Shown in pieces: positions 7,957 to 26,154 of a DNA stretch of 64,000 nt. Under the pieces are notes generated by a model that saw only the letters and a program-made list of their open reading frames with translations, did no database searches and had not been told where the DNA came from. Source of the DNA: Cypionkella sp. (GTDB lineage Bacteria; Pseudomonadota; Alphaproteobacteria; Rhodobacterales; Rhodobacteraceae); the NCBI RefSeq assembly GCF_034376685.1, contig NZ_JAXMJJ010000012.1, forward strand, positions 9,949 to 73,948, read 5' to 3'. Made by a program: the position numbers and the translations under genes. Numbering within the stretch: the first letter of the stretch is position 1; each line of letters starts with the position of its first letter.

Positions 7957-8026
7957 CTGTGACGGTTTGTTAAACACTGTGACAGTGCGTTAAGCCTGAT
8001 TTGGGCCGATTGTGACAACGCGTTAA
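7957..8026. repeat. Three degenerate 17-bp direct repeats (YTGTGACRNYKYGTTAA)
   Basis: CTGTGACGGTTTGTTAA (7957), CTGTGACAGTGCGTTAA (7977), TTGTGACAACGCGTTAA (8010), between convergent genes. Confidence 0.65.
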
Positions 8027-8511
8027 CCGCGTTGCACCACCCAGGGCTGCGGGTAGCAGTATTCTTCTAGGTTCGCACTCGGCCCGATGCGGTCCACCAC
8101 GGCAAACAGGCCGGGGGGGTGCAGCGGGGTGAGGACGCCGTGCCAGATGCCGCGATGCAGGTTGATCGCCTGCGCGCCATTGGTCAGGAAGGCGCGGGGT
8201 TTGTCGTTGGGGCTGGTGGCCACGATGACAAGGAAGGGGTGTTGCGTCATCGGGATGAAGGCTTGAGAGCCTTCAGGGTGGCGCTCGATCAGATCGAATG
8301 TGTAGGGCAAATCCCGCGGGGTGGCGTTGAAAATCGACAGGCCGGGGCGGTTTTGCGGATCGGCTTCGGGCGCGAAATCGAGGCGGGCGCGGTCGTGGTG
8401 GCGCTGGCACATGCCTTCGTTGATCAGGCGGTGATCTCCGGTGGCGTCCAGCACGTCCCCGAACGGGGCAAAGGCGGCGGCGGTGAGGGGTTCGGGGTAG
8501 ATATTGGGCAT
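8023..8511 (-). CDS. allA: Ureidoglycolate lyase
   Basis: EPLTAAAFAPFGDVL, IERHPEGSQAFIP, NLHRGIWHGVL. Start MPNIY at 8511. Confidence 0.9.
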   Translation of the reverse strand: MPNIYPEPLTAAAFAPFGDVLDATGDHRLINEGMCQRHHDRARLDFAPEADPQNRPGLSIFNATPRDLPYTFDLIERHPEGSQAFIPMTQHPFLVIVATSPNDKPRAFLTNGAQAINLHRGIWHGVLTPLHPPGLFAVVDRIGPSANLEEYCYPQPWVVQRG

Positions 8512-8567
8512 GGTGCGCCTTGGGCTTGTGGCGAAGCGAGGAGTTTCACACCCCTCGCGCTCCCCGT

Positions 8568-8591
8568 GGGATATTTGAGCCAAGATGAAAC
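8568..8591 (+). repeat. REP-like motif GGGATATTTGAGCCAAGATGAAA
   Basis: Matches copies at 3087-3110, 3125-3148 (minus) and 15272-15293 (minus). Confidence 0.7.
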
Positions 8592-8616
8592 AATTTTAAG
8601 CACGTTTCAGGTAGAT

Positions 8617-9459
8617 TTAGCGGCTGGGGCGGTAGGCTCCAGGGCCGCGCAGGTTGGCGTGGCGGTTGACATCCTTGTAGAGCAGATAGCGGAAGCGGCC
8701 GGGGCCAGCGGCGTAGCAGGCTTGCGGGCAATAGGCGCGCAGCCACATGAAATCGCCAGCCTCGACCTCGACCCAATCCTGGTTGAGTTTGTAAACCGCT
8801 TTGCCTTCAAGCACATAGAGGCCGTGCTCCATGACATGGGTTTCTTCAAACGGGATCACGCCGCCGGGTTGGAAGGTGACGATGTTGACATGGGCATCGT
8901 AGCGCACATCGGTTGGATCGACGAAGCGGGTGGTGCCCCAGACGCCATTGGTGTCGGGCATCAGGCTGAGGCCAACGTCTTTTTCGTTGATCACGAAGGC
9001 GGGCGGGATCTCGACACCGGGGGCAGGCTCGTAAAGTTTGCGGATCCAGTGGAAGCGGGCGGGTGCATTGCCTTCGGCGAGCAAGCGCCATTTTGCCCCC
9101 GGTGGGATGAAGGCATAGCCGCCTGCGTCCAGCTCATATCCCACGCCGTCGATGGTGAGGGTGATCAACCCGCCTGTGACGAACAGGAAATGTTCGGCCC
9201 CGGCTTCGGCATCGGGGGCGTCAGAGCCGCCGCCGGGGGCAACCTCCATCACATATTGGCTGAAGGTTTCGGAGAAGCCCGACATAGGCCGCGCGATCAG
9301 CCAGAGTTTGGTGTGACGCCAGCCCGGTAGGCAACTGGTCAGGATGTCGGAAAAGCAGCCTTTCGGGATGAAAGCGTAAGCGTTGGTGAAGACCGCGCGG
9401 CCTGTCATCAGCGTGGTTTGGGCGGGCAGGCCGCCGGGGGGGGCGTAATAGGGGCTCAT
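8617..9459 (-). CDS. allE: (S)-ureidoglycine aminohydrolase (bicupin)
   Basis: ETFSQY, HVNIVTFQPGGVIPFEETHVMEHGLYVLEG, YLLYKDVNRH; located in the purine catabolic cluster. Confidence 0.9.
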   Translation of the reverse strand: MSPYYAPPGGLPAQTTLMTGRAVFTNAYAFIPKGCFSDILTSCLPGWRHTKLWLIARPMSGFSETFSQYVMEVAPGGGSDAPDAEAGAEHFLFVTGGLITLTIDGVGYELDAGGYAFIPPGAKWRLLAEGNAPARFHWIRKLYEPAPGVEIPPAFVINEKDVGLSLMPDTNGVWGTTRFVDPTDVRYDAHVNIVTFQPGGVIPFEETHVMEHGLYVLEGKAVYKLNQDWVEVEAGDFMWLRAYCPQACYAAGPGRFRYLLYKDVNRHANLRGPGAYRPSR

Positions 9460-10871
9460 GGCAATTGATCCTTCAGGCGCAGCTCCGCGATGCGTTCGAC
9501 TTGGGCGCAGGCGGTTTTGAATTCGGTGTCGGTGTCGTTTGCGATGCGGGTTTGGAAGGCCGCAAGGATTTGCGCTTTGCTATGGTCGCGCACGGCGATG
9601 ATGAAGGGGAAGCCGTGTTTGGCGGTGTATTGCGCGTTGAGCTGCTGGAATGCGGCGCGCTCGGCATCGGTGAGAGCGTCCAGCGCGGCGCTGGCTTGTT
9701 CGGCCGTGGACTCGGGCGTCAGCTGTTTCGCGGCGGCGAGTTTGCCCGCAAGGTCGGGGTGGGCTTGCAGCACGCCGAGGCGTTCGGCGGGGCTGGCAGA
9801 TCGGAACATCCGGGCGAGCGCATTGTGCAGGCCTGCGGCGCTGTCATGGGCGGGGCCAAGTTCCAGATCATAGGCGCGGTCAGCAATCCACGGCGAATGT
9901 TCGAAAATGGAACCATAGGCGGCGATGAAGCGATCTCGCGCCATCTGCGACGGCCGCTCGAAGCGCTTGTGCGGATGGGTTTTTGCCCAATGTTCGGCGA
10001 TTTCAATACGACGGGGAAACCACACGTCATTGTGGGATTTTGCATAGTCTAGGAAACGCTTCAGCCCTGCGATCTTGCCGGGGCGGCCAATCAGGCGGCA
10101 GTGCAAGCCGATGGAAAACATCTTCGCCCTGCCCTCTTGGCCTTCCGCATAGAGAATGTCGAAGCTGTCTTTCAGGTATTGAAAGAACTGCTGGCCTTCG
10201 ATGTAGCCGGGGGCTGTGGCGAAGCGCATGTCGTTGGCTTCCAGCGTGTAGGGGATCACCAGTTGATCGCGGTCGCCCACCTCGCGCCAATACGGCAGAT
10301 CGTCGTCATAGGTGTCAGATATCCAGTCAAACTGCCCGGTCTCGGCGGTGAGATCGACGGTGTTGAGCGAACAGCGGCCCGTATACCAGCCGCGGGGCGG
10401 TTCGCCCACGACTTCGGTGTGCAGGCGGATCGACTCGGCGATCTGGCGACGTTCTTCCTCAAGCGGCATATCGCGGTGATCGACCCATTTCAGGCCGTGG
10501 CTGGCAATCTCCCACCCGGCGGATTTCATCGCCGCCACTTGTTCCGGGTTGCGCGCCAAAGCCGTCGACACCCCGTAGATCGTCACTGGGATATCCATGC
10601 CGGTGAACAGGCGGTGCAGACGCCAGAAGCCCGCGCGCGCGCCATAATCGTAGATCGATTCCATGTTCCAATGCCGCTGACCGGGCCAAGGGGCAGCGCC
10701 TGCGATGTCGGACAGGAACGCCTCACATTGGCCATCACCGTGCAGGATGTTGTTCTCGCCGCCCTCTTCGTAGTTCAGCACCAGCGACACTGCGATTTTG
10801 GCACCGCCCGGCCAGGCAGCATCGGGGGTATCGGGGCCGTGGCCACGGAAATCGCGGGGGTAGCGGGACAT
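9456..10871 (-). CDS. puuE: Allantoinase PuuE fused to C-terminal OHCU decarboxylase (UraD)
   Basis: N-part VLNYEEGGE, ESIYDYGARAGFWRL, SIGLHCRLIGRPG. C-part FEHSPWIA, AHPDLAGK, KHGFPFIIAVR, QVERIAELRL. Confidence 0.93.
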   Translation of the reverse strand: MSRYPRDFRGHGPDTPDAAWPGGAKIAVSLVLNYEEGGENNILHGDGQCEAFLSDIAGAAPWPGQRHWNMESIYDYGARAGFWRLHRLFTGMDIPVTIYGVSTALARNPEQVAAMKSAGWEIASHGLKWVDHRDMPLEEERRQIAESIRLHTEVVGEPPRGWYTGRCSLNTVDLTAETGQFDWISDTYDDDLPYWREVGDRDQLVIPYTLEANDMRFATAPGYIEGQQFFQYLKDSFDILYAEGQEGRAKMFSIGLHCRLIGRPGKIAGLKRFLDYAKSHNDVWFPRRIEIAEHWAKTHPHKRFERPSQMARDRFIAAYGSIFEHSPWIADRAYDLELGPAHDSAAGLHNALARMFRSASPAERLGVLQAHPDLAGKLAAAKQLTPESTAEQASAALDALTDAERAAFQQLNAQYTAKHGFPFIIAVRDHSKAQILAAFQTRIANDTDTEFKTACAQVERIAELRLKDQLP

Positions 10872-13417: not shown

Positions 13418-14626
13418 ATGCTGTGGGAAACCGTCAGCCTCGCCTTCACCACCATCATCCGCAACAAGCTGCGCACGTTTCTGACCGTGCTGGGCGTGGT
13501 GATCGGGGTTGCTGCGGTGATCGCGATGGTGACGATCGGCCAAGGATCATCAGCGCAAGTCAGCGCCAGCGTGGCGGCTTTGGGCACCAATGTGCTGACC
13601 GTGCGCCCCGGCACGCGTGGCTTTGGCCCACCGACCGGAGGCGCGCAAGCGCCGCGTTTTTCGCTGAAGGATGCCGAGGCTTTGTCCACCCTGCCCGTCG
13701 TGGGCTATGCCGCCCCGGTGGTCAGTTCCGGCCAAACTGTGGTGTTCGGTAATGCCAATGCCGCGACGCAGGTCTATGGTACCACGGGCGATTACATGCA
13801 GATACAGAACTGGCCGCTGCGCACAGGGCGCAGTTTTGAGCCGCATGAAGAAAGCGCGGGTGCTGCGGTCTGTGTGCTGGGCCAGACCGTGGCGACCACC
13901 TTGTTCGGCAATTCTGATCCGGTGGGCCAAAGCATAAGGGTGAAAAACGTCGCCTGTCAGGTGCTGGGCGTGCTGTCTGCGCGCGGCGCGGGCAGTTTCG
14001 GGCAGGATCAGGATGATCTGGTCTTGATGCCCGCGAAATCCGTGCAGCGGCGTCTGGAAGGCAACTCCAATGTGGATTCCATCGCGGTGGCTCTGCGCAA
14101 ATCGGTCAGCGCCGAGGATGGCATCGCCGCGGTGCAGTCGCTTTTGCGCGAGCGTCGGCGGATCGGCCTGACGCAGCCGGATAACTTCAGCGTCTCGGAC
14201 AGCAAAGAGCTGTCGAATATGCTGGGCGGGATCAATTCGGTGCTGACCGGGCTGCTCTCGTCGGTGGCGGCGGTCAGCCTGCTGGTCGGCGGCATTGGCA
14301 TCATGAATATCATGCTGGTCTCGGTCACCGAACGCACCCGTGAGATCGGCATCAGGCTGGCGGTGGGTGCCAGTTCGGGGCAGGTGCTGCTGCAGTTTCT
14401 GGTCGAAGCGGTGGTTTTGTCGCTGCTGGGTGGGGCAATTGGCATCGCCGTGGGGCTGGCGATTGCCTATGGCGGCTCGGTGTTCATGGCGATCCCGTTT
14501 GCGCCCTCGGGGGCGGTGGTGGCGCTCGCGTTCGGGTTTTCAGCGCTGGTCGGCGTGGTGTTTGGCTATTTCCCGGCACGGCGCGCGGCACGGCTGGACC
14601 CGATCGAGGCTTTGCGGCATCAGTAG
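13418..14626 (+). CDS. MacB-type ABC permease
   Basis: RNKLRTFLTVLGVVIG, GGIGIMNIMLVSVTERTREIGIRLAVGA, PARRAARLDPIEALR. Confidence 0.93.
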   Translation: MLWETVSLAFTTIIRNKLRTFLTVLGVVIGVAAVIAMVTIGQGSSAQVSASVAALGTNVLTVRPGTRGFGPPTGGAQAPRFSLKDAEALSTLPVVGYAAPVVSSGQTVVFGNANAATQVYGTTGDYMQIQNWPLRTGRSFEPHEESAGAAVCVLGQTVATTLFGNSDPVGQSIRVKNVACQVLGVLSARGAGSFGQDQDDLVLMPAKSVQRRLEGNSNVDSIAVALRKSVSAEDGIAAVQSLLRERRRIGLTQPDNFSVSDSKELSNMLGGINSVLTGLLSSVAAVSLLVGGIGIMNIMLVSVTERTREIGIRLAVGASSGQVLLQFLVEAVVLSLLGGAIGIAVGLAIAYGGSVFMAIPFAPSGAVVALAFGFSALVGVVFGYFPARRAARLDPIEALRHQ

Positions 14627-14646
14627 CTGAGCAAAGCCAAGGCACC

Positions 14647-15264
14647 TTGATGATCCCCATTCCGCTGAAACCGCCCTACCGCTTCATCGCCTTCGATGTC
14701 GAAACCGCCAATCGCAACGCGCATAGCATCTGTCAGGTCGGCTTGGCTTGCGTCGATGACTGGGGCCAGATCGACACGTTCAGCCTGCTGGTTGACCCGG
14801 ATGAGGCGTTTTCGGCCTTCAACACCGAGTTACATGGCATTGATGCCGCAACGGTGCGCGGTCAGCCGCAGTTCCCCGCCGTGATCGCGGCGATTGCGCC
14901 GCTGATGGCGCAGCAACCGATTGTGCAGCATTCCAGCTTTGATCAGCGCGCAGTGGCGGCGGCTTGCGGTTGGCATGGGCTGGATGTACCTGCGCTGCAT
15001 TGGGTGGACAGCGTCACCATCGCGCGCCGCGCCTGGCCCGAGTTCAAGGGCAATGGTGGTCATGGTCTCGGCCATCTGAAAACCGCGCTCAGCTTGCAGT
15101 TTCAGCACCATGACGCCGGCGAAGATGCCCGCGCCGCGGCCCAAGTGGTGCTATGCGCCGAAGAAAAAACCGGGCGCAGCTTTGTCGAAATCCTTGCCAA
15201 ACAGGGCGCCAAATCCCCACGCGTCTTTCACTCCGCTGCCACCTATTACGAACCATTTGAATAA
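14647..15264 (+). CDS. DEDDh 3'-5' exonuclease (DNA Pol III epsilon-like)
   Basis: FIAFDVETAN, HSSFD, HHDAGEDA. Confidence 0.88.
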   Translation: MMIPIPLKPPYRFIAFDVETANRNAHSICQVGLACVDDWGQIDTFSLLVDPDEAFSAFNTELHGIDAATVRGQPQFPAVIAAIAPLMAQQPIVQHSSFDQRAVAAACGWHGLDVPALHWVDSVTIARRAWPEFKGNGGHGLGHLKTALSLQFQHHDAGEDARAAAQVVLCAEEKTGRSFVEILAKQGAKSPRVFHSAATYYEPFE

Positions 15265-15271
15265 AATTTGC

Positions 15272-15318
15272 TTTCACATTGGCTCAAATACTCTCGGGGT
15301 GCGGGGGTGAGCCCCCGC
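15272..15318 (-). repeat. REP-like motif plus hairpin between convergent genes
   Basis: TTTCACATTGGCTCAAATACTC (reverse complement matches the 8568 motif), then GCGGGGG-TGAG-CCCCCGC. Confidence 0.7.
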
Positions 15319-15335
15319 TCATAAATGCAGCAAGC

Positions 15336-16247
15336 TTACTTCTCAAACGGCTGCCCCAGCGAGGCAATCGTGTTCAGCCGCATCCGCCGACGGTTGGATG
15401 AAATCACCGCCAGCATCAGGATCGTCACAATGTAAGGCACGCAGGCCAGCAGTTGCGACGGGACGTTGACGCCCGCCGCTTGGGTGGTCAGCTCGCCCAA
15501 AGACAAGGCCCCGAACAGGAACGCGCCGAACACCACCCGCCCTGTCGCCCAAGTGCCGAACACCACCAGCGCCAGTGCAATCCAGCCGCGCCCCGCGATC
15601 ATGCCATCGGCCCAGAGCGGCGTGTAAACCGTTGAGGCATAGGCCCCGGCAATCCCCGCCAGCGCGCCACCAAAGGCAATCGCGGCACAGCGCACCCGCA
15701 AAACCCGAAAGCCAATCGCGCGAGCGGCATGCGGATTCTCGCCCACCGCGCGGATGATCAGCCCGAGTTTCGAGTGATTCATCGTGGCCCAGATCGCCAG
15801 TGCCAAGCCAAGCGTTGCCCAAACCACAATATCCTGCACGAACAGCGTGCCCACAACCGGCAGATCAGACAGCAGCGGCAGCGCCAGTTTCGGCAAGCCG
15901 CTGATCGTCAGGCTTTCAAAGCTTTTGCCAAACAGCGACGAAAGCCCGGTGCCCAAGATGCCAATCGCCAACCCCGCCGCCACCTGATTGGCAACAAACC
16001 CCAGCACGATCAGCGCGAACAGCAAGGACAATGCCGCGCCGCCCAAAGCCGCCACCAGAAACCCCAAAGCATGGCTTTGATAGGTGTAAGTGGTGATGAA
16101 CCCCAAGGCCGCGCCCAGCGCCATCATGCCTTCAAGGCCAAGGTTCAAAACACCCGACCGCTCCACCACCATCTCACCCAATGCCGCCAGCAGCATCGGC
16201 GTGGCCGCCGCCAGCATACCCGCAAGAATGAAATCAACGGCGTTCAT
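15336..16247 (-). CDS. Purine/nucleoside ABC permease (BMP-associated)
   Basis: LAALGEMVVERSGVLNLGLEG, RAVGENP, GRGWIALALV. Start MNAVDF at 16247. Confidence 0.9.
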   Translation of the reverse strand: MNAVDFILAGMLAAATPMLLAALGEMVVERSGVLNLGLEGMMALGAALGFITTYTYQSHALGFLVAALGGAALSLLFALIVLGFVANQVAAGLAIGILGTGLSSLFGKSFESLTISGLPKLALPLLSDLPVVGTLFVQDIVVWATLGLALAIWATMNHSKLGLIIRAVGENPHAARAIGFRVLRVRCAAIAFGGALAGIAGAYASTVYTPLWADGMIAGRGWIALALVVFGTWATGRVVFGAFLFGALSLGELTTQAAGVNVPSQLLACVPYIVTILMLAVISSNRRRMRLNTIASLGQPFEK

Positions 16248-17314
16248 GGCGCGACCCTGCGGATAAAGCTGACCTTGTGGCGGATGAAGGTCAGGCCTGC
16301 GAGGTAGAAGCACAAAAGCAGGCCCTGAAACACCCAGACGGCGGCAATCGGCAGGTCCGCCGACACCATCGCGTTGTCACCGCCGATATAGATCACCGAC
16401 ATCACGAAGGCGGAAATCACGATACCCAGCGGGTTCAGCCCGCCCAGATAGGCCACGATGATCGCCGAATATCCGTAGCCCAGCGAGACCGAGCGTTGCA
16501 ATTGACCCAAAGGCCCCGCGACCTCCGCAGCCCCCGCCAGACCCGCCGCAAGCCCGCCCAACAGCAGGCTGATCCAGATCGCGCGGCTTTCACTGAACCC
16601 GGCATAGCGCGCGGCACGGGGGGCTAGCCCACCGACCAGCAGTTGAAACCCCGCAAAGCGGTGGCGCATCAGGATATAGGCCAAACCGCTGGCGATAAGC
16701 GCCAGCAGCAAGGACACGTTCACCCGCGTGCCGGGCAGCAGGATCGGCAGCAAGGCGGCATCGGGGAACATCACGCTTTGTGGAAAGTTGAAGCCGTTCG
16801 GGTCTTTCCACGGCCCCAGCAGCAGATAGTTCAGCACCTGTGCTGCGATCAGCGACAGCATCAGCGTCACCAGAATTTCGTTAGCGTTAAAGCGGGTGCG
16901 AAACATCGCCGCAATCCCGGCCCAAGCCATCCCTGCCGCAGCCCCCATCACCAGCATCGCGGGCAGCATGAAAGCTGAGTCGCCCATCGGATACCACACG
17001 GGCAAGGCCGAGGCCGCGATCGCGCCGATGATCAATTGACCCTCCGCGCCGATGTTGAACACATTGGCGCGGAAACCAATGGCAAGGCCTTGCGCGATCA
17101 GCAGCAAGGGGGCCATTTTCAGCAGCACTTCGGAAAAGTTATACCACGTCAGAAACGGCTCCAGCAGCAGCGAATACAGCGCCTGACCGGGGGCTTTGCC
17201 CAGCAGGGTGAACAGGATCACGCTGGCCACAATCGCGCAGGCGAAGGCCGCGATGGGCGCGACCAGCATGGCCATGCGAGAGGCGCGTTCGCGACGGATG
17301 AAGCTGATCCTCAT
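16244..17314 (-). CDS. Purine/nucleoside ABC permease (BMP-associated)
   Basis: FNIGAEGQL, NANEILVTLML, GYGYSAIIVAYLG. Confidence 0.9.
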   Translation of the reverse strand: MRISFIRRERASRMAMLVAPIAAFACAIVASVILFTLLGKAPGQALYSLLLEPFLTWYNFSEVLLKMAPLLLIAQGLAIGFRANVFNIGAEGQLIIGAIAASALPVWYPMGDSAFMLPAMLVMGAAAGMAWAGIAAMFRTRFNANEILVTLMLSLIAAQVLNYLLLGPWKDPNGFNFPQSVMFPDAALLPILLPGTRVNVSLLLALIASGLAYILMRHRFAGFQLLVGGLAPRAARYAGFSESRAIWISLLLGGLAAGLAGAAEVAGPLGQLQRSVSLGYGYSAIIVAYLGGLNPLGIVISAFVMSVIYIGGDNAMVSADLPIAAVWVFQGLLLCFYLAGLTFIRHKVSFIRRVAP

Positions 17315-18819
17315 GCGGCCACCTCCGGCGATTTTCCCGCGCCGATCATATAGGTGCCGACCTCCTCGGCATTGGTCTGGGCGGTTGGCAAAGACGGCGA
17401 CAGATGCCCCTTGTGCAGCACATGCAGGCGGTCGCAGATCTGGAACAACTCCTCCAACTCCTCGGAAATCACCAGAATGGCCGCGCCCGCGTTGCGCATC
17501 GCCACCAAGCGTTGCCGGATATCGGTGGCAGCGCCAATATCAACGCCCCATGTCGGCTGCGACACCAGAAGCAGTTTCGGCTCCAGCATCATCTCGCGGC
17601 CCATGATGAATTTTTGCAGATTGCCGCCCGACAGCGCCCCCGCTTCGGCCTCTGGCCCCGGCGTGCGCACATCGTAACGGGCGATGCAGGCGGCGGTATA
17701 GGCGCGCTCGGGTCCGCGGCGGATGAAGCCGCGCTGCACAAGGCCCGCGCCATGTGCGGTCAATAAAGCGTTGTCCGCCAAAGACATATCCGGCACAGCC
17801 CCGCGCCCCAAGCGTTCTTCCGGCACAAAGGCAAAGCCCATCCGGCGGCGCGCAGCCACGCCCACAGCCCCGACGGCATGCCCCAACATGCGGATGCTAT
17901 CGCCCGGCTGCACCACCTCACCCGAGATCAGCGCCGCCAGCTCCTGCTGCCCATTGCCGGAAATCCCGGCGATGCCGACGATTTCACCGCTGTGCACCCG
18001 CAGGGAAATATCGGCCAATGACACCCCAAACGGATCGTCATTGACGTAATCGAGGCCGCTCAACTCAAGCCGCACCTCACCCACATCCTGCGCCGTTGCA
18101 GGCAAAGGCGGCGGCATTACGCGACCGATCATCAGCGTCGCCAGATCCTTGGCGGAATGCGCGCGCGGATCGACACGGCCCGTCACCTGACCGCCGCGCA
18201 GGATCGTCGCGGTGTCGCACAACTCTTTGATTTCTTCCAGTTTATGGCTGATGAACAAGATCGCCATGCCGCGCGCCTGCAAGGCCCGCAACGTTTCAAA
18301 CAACCGCGCCACGCTTTGCGGCGGCAGCACCGAGGTCGGCTCATCGAGGATCAGCAGCTCGGGGTTGAGCAGCAGGCAGCGGATGATTTCCACCCGTTGC
18401 CGCTCGCCCACCGACAGCGCATGCACCATCGCTTCGGGGTCGACGTTCAGGCCAAATTCAGCGCCCAAAGCCCGGATGCGCCGCGCCAGATCGGCCTTCC
18501 GCCCCGGCACGATCAGCGCGATATTCTGCACCACCGACAGGGTTTCAAACAAGGAGAAATGCTGGAACACCATGCCAATGCCCAAAGCCCGCGCCTCGGC
18601 GGGACTGCCAAGGTTCACCGGCTGCCCCTTCCACAACATCACGCCCGCATCGGGCGATTCCACGCCGTAAATCAGCTTCATCAGCGTGGATTTGCCCGCG
18701 CCATTCTCACCTAAGATGGCATGGATAGAACCGGGATCGACCACCAGATCAATCCCGGCATTGGCCTGCACCGCGCCGTAACGCTTTGAGATCGCTTGCA
18801 AAGACAACAGCGCGGTCAT
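17311..18819 (-). CDS. ABC ATP-binding protein with two NBDs (nucleoside type)
   Basis: GENGAGKST, LSVGERQRVEI, LSGGNLQK, QPTWGVD. Confidence 0.93.
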   Translation of the reverse strand: MTALLSLQAISKRYGAVQANAGIDLVVDPGSIHAILGENGAGKSTLMKLIYGVESPDAGVMLWKGQPVNLGSPAEARALGIGMVFQHFSLFETLSVVQNIALIVPGRKADLARRIRALGAEFGLNVDPEAMVHALSVGERQRVEIIRCLLLNPELLILDEPTSVLPPQSVARLFETLRALQARGMAILFISHKLEEIKELCDTATILRGGQVTGRVDPRAHSAKDLATLMIGRVMPPPLPATAQDVGEVRLELSGLDYVNDDPFGVSLADISLRVHSGEIVGIAGISGNGQQELAALISGEVVQPGDSIRMLGHAVGAVGVAARRRMGFAFVPEERLGRGAVPDMSLADNALLTAHGAGLVQRGFIRRGPERAYTAACIARYDVRTPGPEAEAGALSGGNLQKFIMGREMMLEPKLLLVSQPTWGVDIGAATDIRQRLVAMRNAGAAILVISEELEELFQICDRLHVLHKGHLSPSLPTAQTNAEEVGTYMIGAGKSPEVAA

Positions 18820-18823
18820 CGGC

Positions 18824-19915
18824 TTACTTCGGCAGCGGCGTGGTGACGCCTTTGACATGCCAATCCATCGACAGGATCATATCGTCGCCCAAAGTCACAC
18901 CAGCGGCCACAGCCTCGGCCCCGTCCTGATTGGTCAACGGCCCGGTGAAGGGGCTGAAACTGCCATCCAGCAGGGTGGCATGAACCGCCTCGATCTTCGC
19001 AGCCATCTCGGGCGCAATATCGGGGTTCCAATCGGCCACGAACACGCAGTTATCCGCCATCCCGAGCCACGCCGAAGCGCCCGCGAAGGTGCCAGCCAGA
19101 TGCGCCGCGACGGAAGCCTTGAAATACGGCGCCCAATCGGTGCCAACCACGCCGAGATACTTCTTCGGCGCATAGGTCTTCATCGACGAGTTCAGGTTGA
19201 ACACATAGGCCCCGGCCTCTTCACAGACCGCCACCACCGAAGGCGTGTCCTGCGCGTTCGAGAACACCACATCGCAGCCCTGCGCCAGCAGCGCCTTGGC
19301 GGCTTCTTGCTCGGATGCCGGATCGAACCACGAGTTCACCCAGACCACGGAAACCTCCATCGCCGGATCCACCGATTGCGCGCCCAAGGTGAAGGCGTTG
19401 ATTGAGGTGATCAGTTCTGGGATCGCAAAGGCCCCGACGCAGCCGAGTTTCTTCGACTTCGACAAGGACGCCGCCGCCATGCCCATCAGGTAAGTGCCCT
19501 GATAATACCGCGCGCCGAAGGGGGAGAAATTGGGCGCCACCTGATAGCCCGAGGCGTGCAGGATCGACACTTCCGGGCGCGCCTTGGCCAGCTTCAGCCC
19601 GCCGTTCATATAGCCAAACGAACCGAGGATCAGGAAGGTGTTCCCGTCCGCCACGGTCTTGTTCATGATGCGGTCGCCGTCCGGGCCTTCGGCGATATTC
19701 TCCAGCAAGGTGACTTTGATCTTGTCACCATATTCGGCCTCCAACGCCTTGGTGCCAAGCTCCAGCGTGTGCGACCAGCCGACATCGGCGGCGGGCGAGG
19801 GCACGATCAGGGCGACGTTCAGCACGCCGTCTTGTGCGAAGGCCGGGATCGGCAGCGCCATCGCAGTGCTGGCAGCAAGGGTGGTTTTCAGGAAAGAGCG
19901 GCGGGTTTGGGTCAT
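18824..19915 (-). CDS. BMP family purine-binding lipoprotein/periplasmic protein with Tat signal
   Basis: MTQTRRSFLK twin-arginine motif; DVGWS, GSFGYM, FGARYYQGTYLMG, INAFTLGA, WVNSWFDP. Confidence 0.9.
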   Translation of the reverse strand: MTQTRRSFLKTTLAASTAMALPIPAFAQDGVLNVALIVPSPAADVGWSHTLELGTKALEAEYGDKIKVTLLENIAEGPDGDRIMNKTVADGNTFLILGSFGYMNGGLKLAKARPEVSILHASGYQVAPNFSPFGARYYQGTYLMGMAAASLSKSKKLGCVGAFAIPELITSINAFTLGAQSVDPAMEVSVVWVNSWFDPASEQEAAKALLAQGCDVVFSNAQDTPSVVAVCEEAGAYVFNLNSSMKTYAPKKYLGVVGTDWAPYFKASVAAHLAGTFAGASAWLGMADNCVFVADWNPDIAPEMAAKIEAVHATLLDGSFSPFTGPLTNQDGAEAVAAGVTLGDDMILSMDWHVKGVTTPLPK

Positions 19916-19946
19916 CGGGTTTCCTTTGGGCTTTGGGATTTTGGGA

Positions 19947-21305
19947 TCAAGACAGGATGCGGTGGAAGGAAGCTTCGGCTTTTGTGAAAAGATCGCGCTC
20001 ATCGAGGCCGGGGAACTGACCATCACGCCAGACGATGCGACCATTGATCATGGTCATATCGACCGGGCGACTGACCCCGACTTTCGGGATCAGGCTGGCC
20101 GGATCATGGCGGGTGCCGACATATTCCAGACGGCGGGTGTCGATGGCGAACAGATCAGCGGCCATGCCGGGGGCAAGGCGGCCAAGGTCTGTCCGCCCCA
20201 GCAAATCGGCGCCGCCAGTGGTGGCATAGCCAAGGAAAGCGCTGGGGTCTGGCACCGGATGCTTACGGGTCGAAGCCACCAGACATTGCAGCATATAGGC
20301 CGAATGAATGCAGTGCATCAGGTTGGAATTGTCATTCGACGCCGCCCCATCGCAGCCCAATCCCACGCGCAGACCCAACGCCTGCATCGCCGGAATATCG
20401 GTGACTTCGGCCCCCACCAGATAGACCGGCTCGGGGCAATGCGACACGCCGGTTTGCGTAGCGGCCATCTGAGCGAGTTCGCCGTGGGTCAATTCCCAGC
20501 AATGCGCATACCAGGTATCGGGGCCGGAAAATCCCATTTCTTCAAGGTATTGCACTGTCCGACGCCCGGTGCGCGCCTCGATCACCGGGCTTTCGCCTTC
20601 GCCAACATGGGTGTGCAAAAGCACGCCTTTGTCGCGGGCAAGACGAATGGATTCCTCAAAGGTGTCTTTGTAGCAGTTGACGGGTTGGCAGGGAGCCACC
20701 GCGACTTGGCGCATGCTGAACGGGCTGGCGTCGTGGTAGGTATCAATCAACCGCTCACAATCGCCGATGAATTGCGCGGTGGTTTCCAGCATCTCATCCG
20801 GGATCGTGCTGCCTTCGGATTTCGGCAGGGTATTGCCGCCGCGCCCGGCATGAAAGCGGATGCCGAACAGATCAGCGGCCTCAAACTGGCGGTCCACAAT
20901 CCGCGACCCGGCATGGCGCGGAAAGTTGTATTGGTGGTCAAACGCCGTGGTGCAGCCGTGTTTGATCAGTTCGGCCAAGGCCACCACCGACGAATGGTAA
21001 AACTGATCCTCGGTCAGCCGCGAGAAGATCGGATAGATCAAATCCAGCCATTCGATCACCGACAGTTTCGTCCAATCCAGATCGGCGCGGTTGCGCACAA
21101 AGCATTGAAAGAAATGGTGATGCGTGTTGATCAGACCCGGATAAATGAACCAGCCCGAGGCGTCGATCACCTCTGCCCCCGGCGCGTGCAGGTTCGGGCC
21201 GATGGCGGCAATCTGTTTGCCTTCGATCAGCATATCCTGCCCCGCCAGCACCAGATCTCTGGCCGAAGGCACAATCGCGGCGCAGTTTTTCAGCAGGATG
21301 CTCAT
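19947..21305 (-). CDS. Amidohydrolase, 8-oxoguanine deaminase/AtzB-like clade
   Basis: PGLINTHHHFFQ, LHTHVGE, SHCP, GLGCDGAASN. Confidence 0.85.
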   Translation of the reverse strand: MSILLKNCAAIVPSARDLVLAGQDMLIEGKQIAAIGPNLHAPGAEVIDASGWFIYPGLINTHHHFFQCFVRNRADLDWTKLSVIEWLDLIYPIFSRLTEDQFYHSSVVALAELIKHGCTTAFDHQYNFPRHAGSRIVDRQFEAADLFGIRFHAGRGGNTLPKSEGSTIPDEMLETTAQFIGDCERLIDTYHDASPFSMRQVAVAPCQPVNCYKDTFEESIRLARDKGVLLHTHVGEGESPVIEARTGRRTVQYLEEMGFSGPDTWYAHCWELTHGELAQMAATQTGVSHCPEPVYLVGAEVTDIPAMQALGLRVGLGCDGAASNDNSNLMHCIHSAYMLQCLVASTRKHPVPDPSAFLGYATTGGADLLGRTDLGRLAPGMAADLFAIDTRRLEYVGTRHDPASLIPKVGVSRPVDMTMINGRIVWRDGQFPGLDERDLFTKAEASFHRILS

Positions 21306-21970
21306 GGCAGCGACTCCAGCGGCGGCACGGCTTCGGGCGCGGGTTTCAACTCGTGCAGGCGGTGAATCCCCGGCATCTCGATGAACCCCGGCAGCGCGCG
21401 GATCGCCCGCGACCACAGCCGGATTGAGGGGTAGTCATCCAAGGTCACACCGCCATCGGGGGCAAGCGCCACATTGGGAAAGCAGGCGATATCGGCGATG
21501 GTGGGCGCATCACCCGTAAGGTAAATCCGCCCCGCAAAGCGCGCCTCGGTCAGATGTGCCTCCAACTCGCGCAAGCACTCCACCCCTGCCCGGCGGAACC
21601 CGTCGATATCACCGGGATACAGCAGCATATCATGCAGCCGCGCCATGCCCAAACTGGCCCCCAGCCGCGCCGAAAACGCCAACCATTGCTGCACTTGCGC
21701 GGTTTGCACAGGCCCCGCACCCAGCCACGCCCCCGCCTTAGACACCTGCGCCAGATACACCAGCATCGCCGTGCTTTCGGTCAGGGTCAGATCGCCATCG
21801 ACCAGCACGGGCAGTGTCCCGGCGGGATTGAGCGCGCGAAACGCGGCGCTGCGGTGTTCCCGCCCCGGATGAAAGTCCACCGCCTTGAGATCCAGCTTGC
21901 GCCCCATCAGCGCCGCCATCAGCCGCACCTTGTAGCAACTGGCGGAAAGGACATAATCATACAGCTTCAT
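21302..21970 (-). CDS. Glutathione S-transferase family protein, NdmE-like
   Basis: LYDYVLSASCYKVRL, LNPAGTLPVL, ARLHD, PTIADIACFP, GFIEMPGI. ATGA overlaps with both neighbours. Confidence 0.85.
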   Translation of the reverse strand: MKLYDYVLSASCYKVRLMAALMGRKLDLKAVDFHPGREHRSAAFRALNPAGTLPVLVDGDLTLTESTAMLVYLAQVSKAGAWLGAGPVQTAQVQQWLAFSARLGASLGMARLHDMLLYPGDIDGFRRAGVECLRELEAHLTEARFAGRIYLTGDAPTIADIACFPNVALAPDGGVTLDDYPSIRLWSRAIRALPGFIEMPGIHRLHELKPAPEAVPPLESLP

Positions 21971-22812
21971 GCCGCCACCATCTGCGCGCCGTAGGTCAGC
22001 CCCTTGCGTTTCAGCCAACGGCGATAGGCGATCGAGGTCAGATCGGCCTGCGTCGGGATCTCTTTGCCGGGGTCCAATGGCAGCAACCGCGGGATCTGAT
22101 TTTCCAGAATCGAGCGGTCTTGCAGGAAGATCATCTGCTGAAACTGGATCAGATCGGCTTGCGGCGTCACATCATCAAACAATGCCATCCACGGCCAAAC
22201 CTCGCAGAGTTCCTCGGTCAGCGGCTGCACGAAAATCGCAATCACATCCCATTCATCCGGGCGGTTCGGGCAGGTCTTGTACAGCACCGAAGCTGTCGGT
22301 GCCGCCACCCGGTACATGTATTCCGTCACAATCCCGCCCGCCGCCGATTTCGCGGCTTGCGGCTGGTAAAAATGCACTTTGGTCGCCCAAACCTCGTCGC
22401 TATCCTCGCGGATTTGCACCTCATAGCGGCCAACTTCGGTATGCGGTTCCGCCCCCAGCACATCGGTATGCACAAAGGGGAAGTGTGCTATGTCGAGGAA
22501 ATTCTCCACCGCGCGCAAGGGCGAGCATTTCACCCGCACCACACCGCAATCCACCAAACGCCGCCCCGGCTGATCCGCCTCGGGGACCCCGAACAACGGA
22601 TGCGCCGGGGTGCCGGGACAGGCCCAAACATGGCCATAGGCCAAGCAAACGGCCAGTCGCTGACCTTCCGCGCCCTGCACCACGATCTCGCCCGCGTCCA
22701 GAAACACCGCGATATCGCTGCCCAACAGCATGGTCTGCCGCCCCGGCCACGCCCCCACCATGGCAATCATCGCCACCGGATACCATTCGTTCAACACCGC
22801 CTGCGGGATCAT
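21967..22812 (-). CDS. Rieske-less oxygenase catalytic subunit, NdmC (7-methylxanthine N-demethylase)-like
   Basis: Mononuclear Fe motif ENFLDIAHFPFVH, then YKTCP, FQQMIFLQD, AYRRWL. No CxH/CxxH Rieske ligands; 281 aa. Confidence 0.8.
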   Translation of the reverse strand: MIPQAVLNEWYPVAMIAMVGAWPGRQTMLLGSDIAVFLDAGEIVVQGAEGQRLAVCLAYGHVWACPGTPAHPLFGVPEADQPGRRLVDCGVVRVKCSPLRAVENFLDIAHFPFVHTDVLGAEPHTEVGRYEVQIREDSDEVWATKVHFYQPQAAKSAAGGIVTEYMYRVAAPTASVLYKTCPNRPDEWDVIAIFVQPLTEELCEVWPWMALFDDVTPQADLIQFQQMIFLQDRSILENQIPRLLPLDPGKEIPTQADLTSIAYRRWLKRKGLTYGAQMVAA

Positions 22813-23423
22813 GCCAAAGCCCCCTCTTCAACCAAGCGCCGCAACCCATCCAGCCAGCGCGAGACCGTAACCCGGTCGCCCACGCCCAATGCGTGCAGCG
22901 TGACGGCCGCACCGCGATCTTGCAGCACCAAGGCCACAGCCGCGCCGCCAATCTGCCCCCGCCAAACCGCGCCTTCGCAGACAAACCCCGGCAAGGTGCG
23001 GGCGATCTCGGCCACCCCGGCTTGCACGGTGATCGAGCGCACCGCTACAAGCCCGCTCAAATCCGGTAGCGCAAGCTCTGCCCCAACAGGCGCGACCCAG
23101 ATCACGCCACCCACCTCAACACATTGATAAACCTCGGCCTTTATCGCGGCAGGCGGCACCATCGCCGGATGCGCCGGGATCTTGCCACACGCGCCATCGC
23201 TGCCATAGGTCCAGCCGTGATAGATGCACGACAGCGTCTCACCGCGCACGAAACCATGCGACAGCCGCATGCCGCGATGCGGGCAGCGATCATTCCACGC
23301 CGACAGCCGCCCAGAGGCCGAGCGCCAAATCGCCAGCTCCGCCCCCTGCCACGCACCCGCCATCACAACGCCCAGCGGCAAATCTTGCGACAAGCCATTG
23401 GCCACCCACATCCCCGACATCAT
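22809..23423 (-). CDS. Stand-alone Rieske [2Fe-2S] domain protein
   Basis: DRCPHRG...LSCIYHGW Rieske ligands, followed by a short C-terminal domain without the catalytic Fe or flavin-reductase motifs. Confidence 0.85.
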   Translation of the reverse strand: MMSGMWVANGLSQDLPLGVVMAGAWQGAELAIWRSASGRLSAWNDRCPHRGMRLSHGFVRGETLSCIYHGWTYGSDGACGKIPAHPAMVPPAAIKAEVYQCVEVGGVIWVAPVGAELALPDLSGLVAVRSITVQAGVAEIARTLPGFVCEGAVWRGQIGGAAVALVLQDRGAAVTLHALGVGDRVTVSRWLDGLRRLVEEGALA

Positions 23424-23551
23424 AATCCCCGCAATCCCCAGCCAAACCTTGCCGCCCCGCCCGAAAACCGAAAGGCTGAAAGCCTCTCTTGCGCCAAGCT
23501 GCCGCAGCAGATGCCACAAATTTCAGCATCCTGCCTGCATATGATCATAAG

Positions 23552-23869
23552 TTAATCGGCTATCGAAGCAAATTCGTTCAGATTTTGCAGCGCCAGATCG
23601 GCGCGATCAATCCGCTCGACCCAAACCTCTTGCGGGCCAAGACTACAGCCCAAAGCCATCGCGTCCAAAAGGTCCGGCAGGCCAGTCACCACCATCTCAA
23701 CCCGTCCCGCATCATGGCGCAGAATCGCCCCGCGCAGACCCAGACGGCGGGCATGCCGCGCGATCCAAGTGGCGAAAATCGGCGCGCCGACATTGCCCAG
23801 CACCGCGAAACTTTGGCTCTGCTCCGGTGCAGGATCGGCGGTTGGATCGGGGGTGACAGGGTGATCCAT
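23552..23869 (-). CDS. Acylphosphatase-fold protein, degenerate active site
   Basis: ARHARRLGLRG...VEMVVTG...GCSLGP...VERI follows the acylphosphatase pattern, but the canonical GxVQGVxFR is replaced by GNVGAPIFA. Confidence 0.65.
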   Translation of the reverse strand: MDHPVTPDPTADPAPEQSQSFAVLGNVGAPIFATWIARHARRLGLRGAILRHDAGRVEMVVTGLPDLLDAMALGCSLGPQEVWVERIDRADLALQNLNEFASIAD

Positions 23870-24022
23870 CGCGGCCTCTGGCTTGGGGTTCGCGCCAAAC
23901 TGGCAGGCCAAGGCCAAGCTGTCCAGAGCGGTCAATCCAGCCGCAACGCCGATTGCCCTCCCCCGCCGCCCGCGTTAGGTAGGCGCATCGCTGCTTCCGA
24001 CCAATCGCTGAAAGACGCTCCG

Positions 24023-25090
24023 TTGTCGCAGACCCCGCCAGCCGTGAATCGCCGCCGCCAAGTGTTGCAATGGGCCGCCCTCGCGCTGCTGTCGGCGCTG
24101 ATCACCACCGGGTTTGAGCTGCTGCACCTGCCCGCCGCCCTGCTGCTGGGACCGATGATTGCGGCGATTATCCTTGCACTGCGCGGGTTTAGCATCACCT
24201 TGCCCGCCCCTGCGATGACGGCGGCGCAAGGTGTGGTCGGGCTGATGGTGGCGACGATCCTGCCGATTTCGATGATGGCAGAGGTTGCATCGCAATGGCC
24301 TATCGTGCTGACCGGGACGCTGTTCACCATTGCAGCCTCGTCGCTGCTTGGCTGGCTGGTGGCGCGCTCGGGCGCACTTCCGGGCACCACCGCGATCTGG
24401 GGATCCTCGCCGGGGGCGGCCTCGGCCATGGTGCTGTTATCAGGCGCATATGGCGCCGACATCCGGCTTGTCGCTTTCATGCAATACCTGCGCGTCGCCT
24501 GCGTGGCGGTGGTCGCCACCGTGGTGGCGCGGCTGTTTGGGGTGGCGGATGGCCCTGCAGCCAGTATCATTTGGTTTCCGGGCATGCCGCTGTTGGGCGT
24601 GGCACAGACGTTGGCGCTCGCCGTGGTGCTGGCCTTCGTCGGCCAAAGATTGTGCCTGCCCGGAGCAACCTTCCTGCTGCCGATCGGCACCGGCATGCTG
24701 CTGGTACAGACCGGATGGATGCAGATTTACCTGCCGCCGTGGCTGCTGGCGCTGACCTATGCCGCCATCGGCTGGTCCATCGGCCTTCGCTTTACCCCCG
24801 CCACTTTGGGCCACGCCTTGCGGGCCTTCCCACGGGTGTTCGCCTCGATCATGGCGCTGATCGCGGTCTGTGGCGGGGCGGCTTGGGTCTTGGTGCATTT
24901 CGCCGGGATTGATCCCCTGACCGCCTATCTTGCCACCAGCCCCGGCGGCATGGATTCCATCGCCATCATCGCGGCCTCCACCCCGGTCGATGTGGCGTTT
25001 GTGATGACGATGCACATGGCGCGGTTTTTGCTGGTGCTGCTGCTTGGCCCCATGCTGGCGCGCTGGTTGTCGCGCCCGAAGGGATTTTAG
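24023..25090 (+). CDS. AbrB family (putative ammonia-monooxygenase-like) membrane protein
   Basis: PAALLLGPMIAA, WGSSPGAAS, FMQYLRV, AYLATSPGGMD; ~10 TM segments. Start approximate. Confidence 0.85.
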   Translation: MSQTPPAVNRRRQVLQWAALALLSALITTGFELLHLPAALLLGPMIAAIILALRGFSITLPAPAMTAAQGVVGLMVATILPISMMAEVASQWPIVLTGTLFTIAASSLLGWLVARSGALPGTTAIWGSSPGAASAMVLLSGAYGADIRLVAFMQYLRVACVAVVATVVARLFGVADGPAASIIWFPGMPLLGVAQTLALAVVLAFVGQRLCLPGATFLLPIGTGMLLVQTGWMQIYLPPWLLALTYAAIGWSIGLRFTPATLGHALRAFPRVFASIMALIAVCGGAAWVLVHFAGIDPLTAYLATSPGGMDSIAIIAASTPVDVAFVMTMHMARFLLVLLLGPMLARWLSRPKGF

Positions 25091-26154
25091 GCCAGCACGA
25101 TCACATCCTGCCCCCGGAACCGCAAAGCCACCTCGGCCCCCAGTGGCGGCGGCGGCGCATCAGGCCGGTTGAACAAATCGAGCGAGATCGCCCCCGCCGC
25201 CGTATCCGCCTTGACTCGGATCACCGCGCCCAGAAACTGCACGGCGGCAATCTTTGCGGGCAGCGCAAAATCACCCCGGCTGATCTGCGCGGCATCGGCC
25301 TCCAGATGCACCACCTCGGGACGCAAGGCCAATCCCACCGTCGCCCCCCGCGCCGCCGCAATCGCTTGTGGCAGGCGCAGAGGTTGCCCCTGCACCGTCA
25401 CCTCACCCTGAGCAGCGTCCGTCACCACGGCATCGAGCGTATTCAACGTGCCGACAAACTGCGCCACAAACCGCGTCTTCGGATGGTTATATATCTCAAA
25501 CGGCGCGCCCACTTGTTCCGCCCGCCCGCCGTTCATCACCACAACCCGGTCTGACATCGACAGGGCTTCTTCCTGATCATGCGTCACAAAAATCGTGGTG
25601 ATGCCCAATTTCCGCTGAATATCCCGGATTTCCGCCCGCAAACTGACACGAATCTTCGCATCCAACGCCGACAACGGCTCATCCAACAACAAAACCCGTG
25701 GACGCGGTGCCAGTGCCCGCGCCAAAGCCACCCGCTGCTGCTGCCCGCCCGAAAGCTGGAACGGATAGCGCGCACCCATTTCCGGCAACCCGATCAGCGC
25801 CAGCATCTCAGCCACCCGCGCGGTGATTTCCTTGGCCGACACCCCGGCAATCTTCAACCCAAAGCCGACATTCTGCGCCACCGTCAGGTTCGGAAACAGC
25901 GCATAGGCCTGAAATACCATGCCGATATTGCGCTGGTTGGGCCGCAGATGCGTCACATCCTGCCCGTCAATCTTGATCGCGCCAAGGGTGGGGGTTTCGA
26001 ACCCCGCCACCATCCGCAGCACGGTGGTTTTCCCGCACCCCGACGGGCCCAAAAGCGAGACAAACTCGCCCTGCGCCACCCCCAGATCAAACGATTTCAC
26101 CACTTGGTTCGCGCCAAAAGATTTTTGCAGCGCACTAAGATCGAGATACGCCAT
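25087..26154 (-). CDS. PotA/FbpC-type ABC ATP-binding protein
   Basis: [39 protein letters not shown]-like tail. Confidence 0.93.
   Translation of the reverse strand: MAYLDLSALQKSFGANQVVKSFDLGVAQGEFVSLLGPSGCGKTTVLRMVAGFETPTLGAIKIDGQDVTHLRPNQRNIGMVFQAYALFPNLTVAQNVGFGLKIAGVSAKEITARVAEMLALIGLPEMGARYPFQLSGGQQQRVALARALAPRPRVLLLDEPLSALDAKIRVSLRAEIRDIQRKLGITTIFVTHDQEEALSMSDRVVVMNGGRAEQVGAPFEIYNHPKTRFVAQFVGTLNTLDAVVTDAAQGEVTVQGQPLRLPQAIAAARGATVGLALRPEVVHLEADAAQISRGDFALPAKIAAVQFLGAVIRVKADTAAGAISLDLFNRPDAPPPPLGAEVALRFRGQDVIVLA

Follow-up and report, generated by a model that had tools for sequence, protein, structure and literature searches.

Most of the systems closest to the locus described here act on purines or bind them. 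NdmCDE of Pseudomonas putida CBB5 is a 7-methylxanthine N7-demethylase that depends on a glutathione S-transferase (GST), and homologues of ndmCDE with unknown function, mainly in Sinorhizobium and Mesorhizobium, had already been seen by Summers et al. 2013, in both cases as that work is represented in PMC4408171. More recently, AtzB homologues of Pleomorphomonas oryzae, a Rhodobacteraceae bacterium and Haliea were found to convert N2,N2-dimethylguanine into xanthine and dimethylamine; these N2,N2-dimethylguanine hydrolases (NdmH) have a kcat/KM for their substrate of 1e5-1e6 M-1 s-1, 150-3600-fold above guanine, and are inactive on the nucleoside, and their physiological and genomic context is, according to their authors, still under investigation (Drexler et al., ACS Catal 2026, PMC13054789). 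On the side of uptake, the binding protein AtzT gave crystals that contained guanine carried over from the expression host (Kd ~110 nM; PMC6834077), and the Brucella protein 3S99 was modelled with adenine. Here we analyse a 64,000-nucleotide stretch of DNA from Cypionkella sp. (contig NZ_JAXMJJ010000012.1; the whole stretch is called the window), whose minus strand carries at 15336-23869 a nine-gene operon in which relatives of these systems stand together: an NdmC-type oxygenase in two separate halves, an NdmE-type GST, an NdmH orthologue and a BMP-family ATP-binding cassette (ABC) importer, preceded by a small acylphosphatase-like protein.

Methylated guanines arise continuously from RNA turnover, and their reuse by bacteria is largely unknown. 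We propose, with a probability of roughly 0.55, that this operon imports and breaks down methylated guanine bases set free by RNA degradation. At the core of an earlier note on this DNA stood the claim that a split Rieske oxygenase of the NdmC/NdmE type is linked with a hydrolase of the purine type and an importer of purines, to act on methylated purines, and homology and tree tests support that claim. The open reading frame (ORF) list, Pfam and NCBIfam give nine co-oriented genes with five ATGA start/stop overlaps, read directly from the sequence (Rieske/oxygenase, oxygenase/GST, GST/hydrolase, ATPase/permease and permease/permease), which agrees with the overlapping, co-oriented run described earlier. 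All the parts that the note had named lie on the minus strand where it had placed them; its inventory was incomplete in that a ninth gene inside its range, at 23552-23869, had gone unmentioned.

The arrangement is strongly conserved. In a sample of 80 genome loci, fetched around relatives of the oxygenase in Rhodobacterales and Rhizobiales, the identical gene set and order was found in 71-78, the exceptions being mostly contig ends, and because the gene order recurs in this way the operon cannot be a chance arrangement. Relatives of the oxygenase number in the thousands (~280 aa, 70-93% identity, in Rhodobacterales and Rhizobiales) and carry only generic names, and the operon, which is chromosomal or megaplasmid-borne, has been kept across hundreds of environmental alphaproteobacteria. 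Clustering of all flanking ORFs of the 80 loci gave no further conserved neighbour, such as a reductase or a regulator, beyond the nine genes.

The split oxygenase and its partners

The catalytic subunit (21967-22812, minus strand; 281 aa; Pfam VanA_C, 3.2e-20) has no Rieske domain and shares 42% identity and 59% similarity over 277 aa with NdmC of CBB5, the reference being UniRef M1EY73, 'Methylxanthine N7-demethylase' of P. putida, which was reached by a search seeded with the oxygenase of a plasmid-borne trio described below. Identity to NdmA and NdmB of a complete Alx-type caffeine cluster is merely 22-25%. In a maximum-likelihood tree all Rieske-less proteins fall into one clade (99% SH-aLRT), where the window orthogroup splits off as a branch of its own with full support, next to NdmC proper and two more branches; the successive outgroups of the clade are a cyanobacterial unsplit oxygenase, HpxD and NdmA/B. 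Both the identity and the tree thus bear out the suggestion that the oxygenase is NdmC-like, and a check for clustering with vanillate or aromatic O-demethylases placed it in the NdmC-type clade instead. The closest outgroup is an SxtT-like enzyme of Leptolyngbya boryana, encoded on plasmid p2 (locus L089, 1-4675), where a BMP ABC importer is followed directly by the unsplit Rieske oxygenase.

At the active site, the window protein carries the iron-site motif ENFLDIAHFPFVH plus D232. Residues E103, N104, F105, L106, D107, H110, H115 and D232 are invariant in the oxygenase alignment, and the iron ligands H110, H115 and D232 are, together with D107, invariant across the entire Rieske-less clade. 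In other Rieske oxygenases the aspartate equivalent to D107 bridges to the Rieske cluster of the adjacent subunit. No conserved Cys or His that could serve as a cluster ligand occurs in the N-terminal 65 aa. In the AlphaFold2 model (predicted local distance difference test, pLDDT, 84) a 65-residue beta stub replaces the Rieske domain and is followed by a complete catalytic domain, and the model matches GxtA/SxtT with a Foldseek TMq of 0.82-0.85.

The missing cluster would be supplied by the product of the gene immediately upstream (22809-23423, minus strand), a free-standing Rieske [2Fe-2S] protein of 204 aa (Pfam Rieske, 3.3e-19) whose ligands, C48-P-H50 and C67-I-Y-H70, do not vary among 31 orthologues. 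Over its whole 204 aa this family aligns to residues 1-239 of NdmD (hhalign probability 99.9%, E 1.9e-35), and the protein is 33-42% identical to the N-terminus of NdmD and 40-42% to those of NdmD-like proteins; given this end-to-end alignment, the window Rieske protein corresponds to NdmD minus its reductase, and the earlier suggestion of a Rieske-only partner that supplies an NdmD-type domain is upheld. No fusion to an FMN/NADH/[2Fe-2S] reductase was found, as the Rieske ORF stops at the start of the oxygenase in the window and in 78 loci. The protein consists of a Rieske domain and a truncated, oxygenase-type C-terminal stub, modelled by AlphaFold2 (pLDDT 89) as the Rieske domain, a small sheet and a long C-terminal helix, and it can be placed along the full-length alpha subunits of GxtA/SxtT with a Foldseek TMq of 0.72-0.76. 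Both oxygenase proteins therefore model as full alpha-subunit folds with complementary losses, the simplest reading of which would be a hetero-oligomer of two complementary, degenerate alpha-type subunits.

Two further small proteins accompany the halves. The GST-like subunit (21302-21970, minus strand; 222 aa, with GST_N and GST_C domains) is 44.9% identical over its full length to NdmE of the Alx-type caffeine cluster and 44-45% identical to the Pseudomonas and Klebsiella plasmid homologues. The runner-up GST of the same genome reaches 27% against NdmE, a distance that substantiates the NdmE label given to this gene earlier.

The operon begins with a gene at 23552-23869 (minus strand), read as ~105 aa from M23 of an ORF reaching 23935, whose product matches the Pfam Acylphosphatase family PF00708 (E 2.8e-7; 31 bits against a cut-off of 22.5 bits). 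The canonical catalytic motif of acylphosphatases has an Arg in the phosphate loop and an Asn; both are missing from the window protein and from 17 aligned relatives, and the gene product is, as far as its sequence can tell, a catalytically dead acylphosphatase-like protein, or pseudo-acylphosphatase. It lies just upstream of the Rieske gene in ~75 of 78 loci when looser thresholds are applied, and is annotated at this position in Rhizobium leguminosarum. The family, with 1325 hits and 220 representative clusters at E<=1e-10, consists mostly of members below 140 aa; among the best 150 of the 1325 hits no domain fusion was seen, all being small and stand-alone, with the longer ones holding only the same domain. 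Four clusters with an NdmD fusion are without the small acylphosphatase-like protein, which suggests that it tracks the unfused form of the Rieske protein. The possibility that it represents a displaced piece of NdmD was considered and rejected (hhalign probability 0.2).

Hydrolase, importer and genomic supply

The amidohydrolase (19947-21305, minus strand; 452 aa) is 76.5% identical to rbNdmH, 74% to poNdmH, 58% to AtzB and 55% to hsNdmH, the NdmH reference sequences being those in the supplement of PMC13054789. Thirteen of 13 functional residues are kept (Q74, W85, W93, Y98, Y133, N165, C213, Q214, N217, E243, H275, P300 and D326 in poNdmH numbering), all of which are catalytic, substrate-flanking (W/W/Y/Y/P) or specificity-determining, including the CQNN set (PMC13054789). 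The gene had been assigned to the 8-oxoguanine deaminase clade in the earlier note. That assignment holds insofar as 8-oxoguanine deaminase is the top NCBIfam model and the closest solved structures are 8-oxoguanine deaminases (E 2.5e-86 and 6e-85) together with AtzB-type enzymes. It falls short in that the model in question, NF006055, scores 378.5 bits, below its equivalog cut-off of 532, and in that the protein is 74-76.5% identical to characterised NdmH, enzymes that are themselves only ~35-40% identical to the 8-oxoguanine deaminase of P. aeruginosa (identity table of PMC13054789). We conclude that the window amidohydrolase is an NdmH orthologue, with hydrolysis of N2,N2-dimethylguanine as its predicted activity. 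Because it is an orthologue of NdmH, whose established substrate is N2,N2-dimethylguanine, the deamination of 7-methylguanine by this enzyme, put forward in the earlier note, is putative and unproven.

NdmH genes also occur in other surroundings. At two gammaproteobacterial loci (L097 and L098), hsNdmH and a 67%-identical relative are found amid adenine deaminases, a HupE/UreJ_2 membrane protein and an amidase, and the second locus additionally holds a xanthine dehydrogenase (XDH), a PuuD-type urate oxidase, a HIU hydrolase and an OHCU decarboxylase.

The importer occupies the downstream part of the operon, with a BMP-family periplasmic binding protein at 18824-19915 (Bmp, 6.8e-34, with a twin-arginine translocation (TAT) signal), an ABC transporter ATPase with two ATP-binding domains at 17311-18819 (ABC_tran in two stretches), and two permeases at 16244-17314 (BPD_transp_2, 2.2e-34) and 15336-16247 (BPD_transp_2, 2.7e-30; the last gene), all on the minus strand. 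The binding protein's top matches in the PDB are guanine-bound AtzT (6PI5, E 3e-80) and Brucella 3S99 (E 2e-76). Five of the eight residues with which AtzT contacts its ligand are identical (Ser97, Phe98, Glu165, Trp194 and Asn218). The stacking Tyr45 is replaced by Trp, Asn169 by Ser, and Asn220 by Asp with one inserted residue, which leaves aromatic stacking and the majority of the hydrogen-bonding residues in place. Positions 169 and 220 lie on the side of the pocket where guanine has its exocyclic amine (N2) and hydroxyatrazine its N-alkyl groups, and their pattern of change is invariant in 74 orthologues. These substitutions are suggestive of a pocket that would accommodate guanine carrying a substituent on N2. 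Outside the window, contig C92 (13949-25551) encodes a second BMP binding protein, which is 36% identical to that of S. meliloti and lies ~8 kb from the canonical xdhB.

The remaining genome bears on the purpose of the operon and on its supply of electrons. A canonical guanine deaminase (GuaD) and XdhB (1205 bits) are present, so that the operon is not needed for plain guanine or xanthine, and the catabolism of these two bases is unlikely to be its purpose. A dimethylamine monooxygenase operon, dmmDABC, lies outside the window on contig C72 (36202-40100) and comprises a GcvT-like protein, a DmmA-like protein, a DmmA_N/NAD/Fer2 reductase and an HODM-alpha-like subunit; it could consume the dimethylamine that NdmH releases, and nothing else in the genome matches the reductase half of NdmD as well as its reductase does. 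Neither the nine-gene operon nor the flanks of the 80 loci encode a reductase, in line with the earlier statement that the cluster has none. The FNR/Fer2-type hits that were examined have homes of their own, namely dmmDABC, a pair of Rieske oxygenase and reductase, and a likely diiron monooxygenase cluster, and one further weak reductase hit falls on contig C103.

Relatives and neighbours of the operon

A sister branch of the oxygenase, 53-55% identical to the window protein, is found in rearranged, paralogous clusters (L099, 2283-11385; L100, 669-11657). These clusters contain a small acylphosphatase-like protein, a free Rieske protein, an NdmE-type GST, a BMP ABC importer and the oxygenase, and their amidohydrolases differ, being just 25-39% identical to NdmH. 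The same parts in another order and with other amidohydrolases imply that the association of oxygenase, hydrolase and importer has recurred independently. The sister branch points to a family of modified-purine clusters with differing specificities.

Fused and plasmid-borne forms of the system exist as well. On pSymA of S. meliloti (L083, 4236-14234), a tandem pair of NdmC-like genes is accompanied by a full-length NdmD-like gene and a GST, all divergent from the genes of a GntR regulator and of a BMP ABC importer, with no NdmH within the cluster. Conjugative plasmids of P. putida (L081, 5551-18959) and K. pneumoniae (L082, 6731-13385) combine an ndmC-ndmD-ndmE-like trio with genes for a TIM-barrel protein, a full-length Rieske oxygenase, 2-oxoglutarate oxygenases, a GntR regulator and a purine permease. 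The full-length oxygenase of the P. putida plasmid groups with HpxD, and hpxO is present; that of the Klebsiella plasmid groups with NdmB, and no hpxO is annotated there.

In the window itself, the urate genes allA, ureidoglycine aminohydrolase and puuE-OHCU decarboxylase are located at 8023-10871. The earlier note was right to place them near the operon; an efflux operon (by inspection) and an exonuclease gene intervene, and the vicinity is kept only among the closest relatives. The exonuclease, of the DEDDh (RNase T/DnaQ) type, is encoded at 14647-15264 on the plus strand, convergent on the operon's end, and it too stays beside the operon only in the closest (Cypionkella/Pseudorhodobacter) relatives. 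The opposite flank is a phosphonate C-P lyase cluster, in which a CorA-type Mg2+ channel gene (40233-41195, plus strand) sits amid two ABC-ATPase genes that are, by position, phnK/phnL-like. In an Rfam scan of 14500-25500, neither a riboswitch nor any other RNA family came up, and promoter and terminator scans gave signals no higher than shuffled controls.

Proposed route, rival explanations and comparison with known systems

In the route that we favour, the TAT-exported BMP protein and the ABC transporter would import a free methylated base, with N2,N2-dimethylguanine, 7-methylguanine, N2,N2,7-trimethylguanine and similar bases as candidates. NdmH would hydrolyse the C2 substituent, releasing dimethylamine and probably methylamine or ammonia too, to leave the xanthine ring, and a four-protein oxygenase would strip a ring N-methyl group as formaldehyde, N7 being the likeliest position by analogy with NdmC. 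Within this putative complex the Rieske protein would provide the [2Fe-2S] cluster and a catalytic-domain stub, and the catalytic protein a 2-His-1-Asp iron site, the bridging Asp and a Rieske-domain stub; the NdmE-type GST and the pseudo-acylphosphatase would accompany both halves, and electrons would be drawn from a reductase encoded elsewhere. Xanthine would then enter the ordinary XDH/urate pathway, which is present in the genome. The two steps could proceed in either order. The bases 7-methylguanine and N2,N2,7-trimethylguanine would need both activities, or the oxygenase and an ordinary guanine deaminase, and N2,N2-dimethylguanine would need NdmH alone. The activities assumed for NdmCDE and for close NdmH orthologues are those given in the literature.

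Several observations weigh against this proposal. The first concerns the logic of the route: as NdmH alone yields xanthine from N2,N2-dimethylguanine, the oxygenase would have to act on another substrate or on one with further methyl groups, and the main text of neither NdmH paper (PMC13054789 among them) mentions 7-methylguanine. Second, the NdmH module and the oxygenase module are separable: two Paracoccus genomes keep the oxygenase and the importer in an operon without NdmH (the best match elsewhere in the genome is 40% identical), and neither gammaproteobacterial NdmH locus contains a Rieske oxygenase. Third, an identity of 42% does not fix the substrate or the regiochemistry of the oxygenase, and we found no characterised member of the NdmC-type clade in the literature besides NdmC itself. 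Q225 and F229 of the window protein are indeed the residues that NdmC has at the specificity pair N282/F286 of NdmA (the positions of the 'QL' mutant); the match is weak evidence, because it is shared by most of the clade. Finally, no orphan NdmD-like reductase emerged among the FNR/Fer2-type hits examined in the genome, which, the weak hit on contig C103 aside, belong to other operons.

The rival that survives best, quite plausible though we consider it distinctly less probable, also treats the operon as a catabolic unit for modified purines and differs in the substrate of the oxygenase, which would be a purine with a modification other than N7-methyl. Candidates would be 1- or 3-methylxanthine, 1-methylguanine, an exocyclic N-methyl group or a bulkier natural purine, demethylated or oxidised by a chemistry unlike that of NdmC. 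The separate position of the window orthogroup, on a branch of its own and 42% identical to NdmC proper, is what such a substrate would lead one to expect. The parallel branches (Sm_C1, Sm_C2 and P0181/P0211), which come with different partner amidohydrolases, suggest that specificities have diversified, and regiospecificity shifts easily in this superfamily, as NdmA and NdmB illustrate (the 'QL mutant' entries in the PDB). On the other side, within the Rieske-less, GST-dependent clade the one enzyme characterised is specific for N7, Q225 and F229 agree with NdmC, and bases of the 7-methylguanine (m7G) type are the most abundant ring-methylated guanines.

We regard it as improbable that the oxygenase is instead an HpxD-like purine C-hydroxylase, converting xanthine to urate or guanine to 8-oxoguanine, so that the imported base would reach urate without XDH. 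HpxD, annotated 'molybdenum cofactor-independent xanthine hydroxylase' and ~30% identical, is the next outgroup of the NdmC-type clade, NdmH would deliver the xanthine, the window hydrolase and 8-oxoguanine deaminase fall into one sequence cluster, and the urate-pathway genes are 4.5 kb away in this genome. However, this proximity is lost outside the closest relatives, the canonical XdhB is present, and the window oxygenase is far closer to NdmC than to HpxD, which is unsplit, has a PDR/VanB reductase of its own and works without a GST.

The weakest rival, a cluster for the breakdown of s-triazines or other xenobiotics whose purine link is incidental, could appeal to the 58% identity of the hydrolase to AtzB, to AtzT as the best solved relative of the binding protein and to the frequent annotation of homologues as 'hydroxyatrazine ethylaminohydrolase', but is very improbable given that the window enzyme has CQ..N and N165 rather than AtzB's SS..I/I, the residues that decide between dimethylguanine and hydroxyatrazine (PMC13054789), and that the operon is a chromosomal or megaplasmid-borne, widely kept unit, unlike atzB, which lies between insertion sequence elements. 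On a pADP-1-like plasmid (L101, 6941-10905), atzB is bracketed by IS1071 and ISPps1, beside a TetR regulator and an NCS2 purine permease. Acquisition of both atzB and atzT from one operon with NdmH and BMP genes was considered as well and is not supported, atzB not being beside atzT on this record.

Returning to methylguanine catabolism, a more far-reaching version of our proposal seems to us unlikely as a whole. It would make the four-part, free-standing enzyme, with its two halves derived as complementary degenerate copies from one alpha subunit, the predominant natural form of the NdmCDE family and the pseudo-acylphosphatase an essential subunit, for example an adaptor to a housekeeping reductase, and it would make the operon the first complete bacterial route from RNA methylguanines to xanthine, recycling N2,N2-dimethylguanine (m2,2G), m7G and the cap base m2,2,7G. 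Short of this, the locus already offers a candidate physiological context for NdmH, in the form of a dedicated importer and a coupled NdmCDE-type oxygenase, and a concrete, testable function for the rhizobial ndmCDE homologues noted in 2013. Additionally, possible new N-demethylase parts could become available for methylxanthine biocatalysis. In the literature we found no work that brings together NdmCDE, NdmH and AtzT-type binding proteins, none connecting a Rieske protein with NdmH, with 8-oxoguanine deaminase or with 7-methylguanine demethylation, and none on an unfused Rieske half-subunit or on the pseudo-acylphosphatase. The kinds of parts are nevertheless already known, from NdmCDE (2013), AtzT-type binding proteins (2019) and NdmH (2026), and the operon is an extension of these rather than a new principle.

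Set against the individual systems, the oxygenase resembles SxtT and GxtA (PDB 6WN3 and 6WNC), Rieske hydroxylases of saxitoxin biosynthesis, in that these are the best solved match in sequence and in fold for both of its proteins. Unlike the window halves, to which they are ~22% identical, SxtT and GxtA are single full-length alpha subunits with both cofactors, and they are biosynthetic rather than catabolic. With HpxDE, the molybdenum-independent xanthine/hypoxanthine hydroxylase of Enterobacterales, the operon shares a Rieske oxygenase of the VanA_C superfamily that acts on purines in HpxDE and is predicted to do so here; the window oxygenase differs from HpxD in lacking a Rieske domain and an adjacent PDR/VanB reductase, in belonging to a separate clade and in being only ~30% identical. 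The binding protein is of the same BMP subfamily as AtzT and Brucella 3S99 and has a TAT signal, and it differs from AtzT by its alterations at Asn169 and Asn220, on the N2-facing side.

The likeness is closest to NdmCDE and NdmH. As in NdmCDE, the catalytic subunit is Rieske-less (42% identity, same clade, same iron motif), an NdmD-type Rieske domain resides on a separate polypeptide, an NdmE-type GST (45%) is encoded alongside and the context is purine-related. Unlike in NdmCDE, the Rieske module is a free-standing protein of 204 aa that is not fused to an FMN/NADH/plant-type-ferredoxin reductase, no reductase is encoded in or near the operon, an extra gene for a pseudo-acylphosphatase is present, NdmA/B are missing, and the trio is combined with NdmH and an ABC importer where NdmCDE has a permease and formaldehyde genes. 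A split architecture like that of the caffeine enzyme thus exists also without a fused reductase and with an additional small protein. The hydrolase, in turn, follows poNdmH and rbNdmH in identity (74-76.5%) and in all its catalytic, substrate-flanking and CQNN residues, and, compared with the NdmH paper (PMC13054789), which gives no genomic context, the window places ndmH in translational coupling with an NdmCDE-type oxygenase and in linkage with a purine importer.

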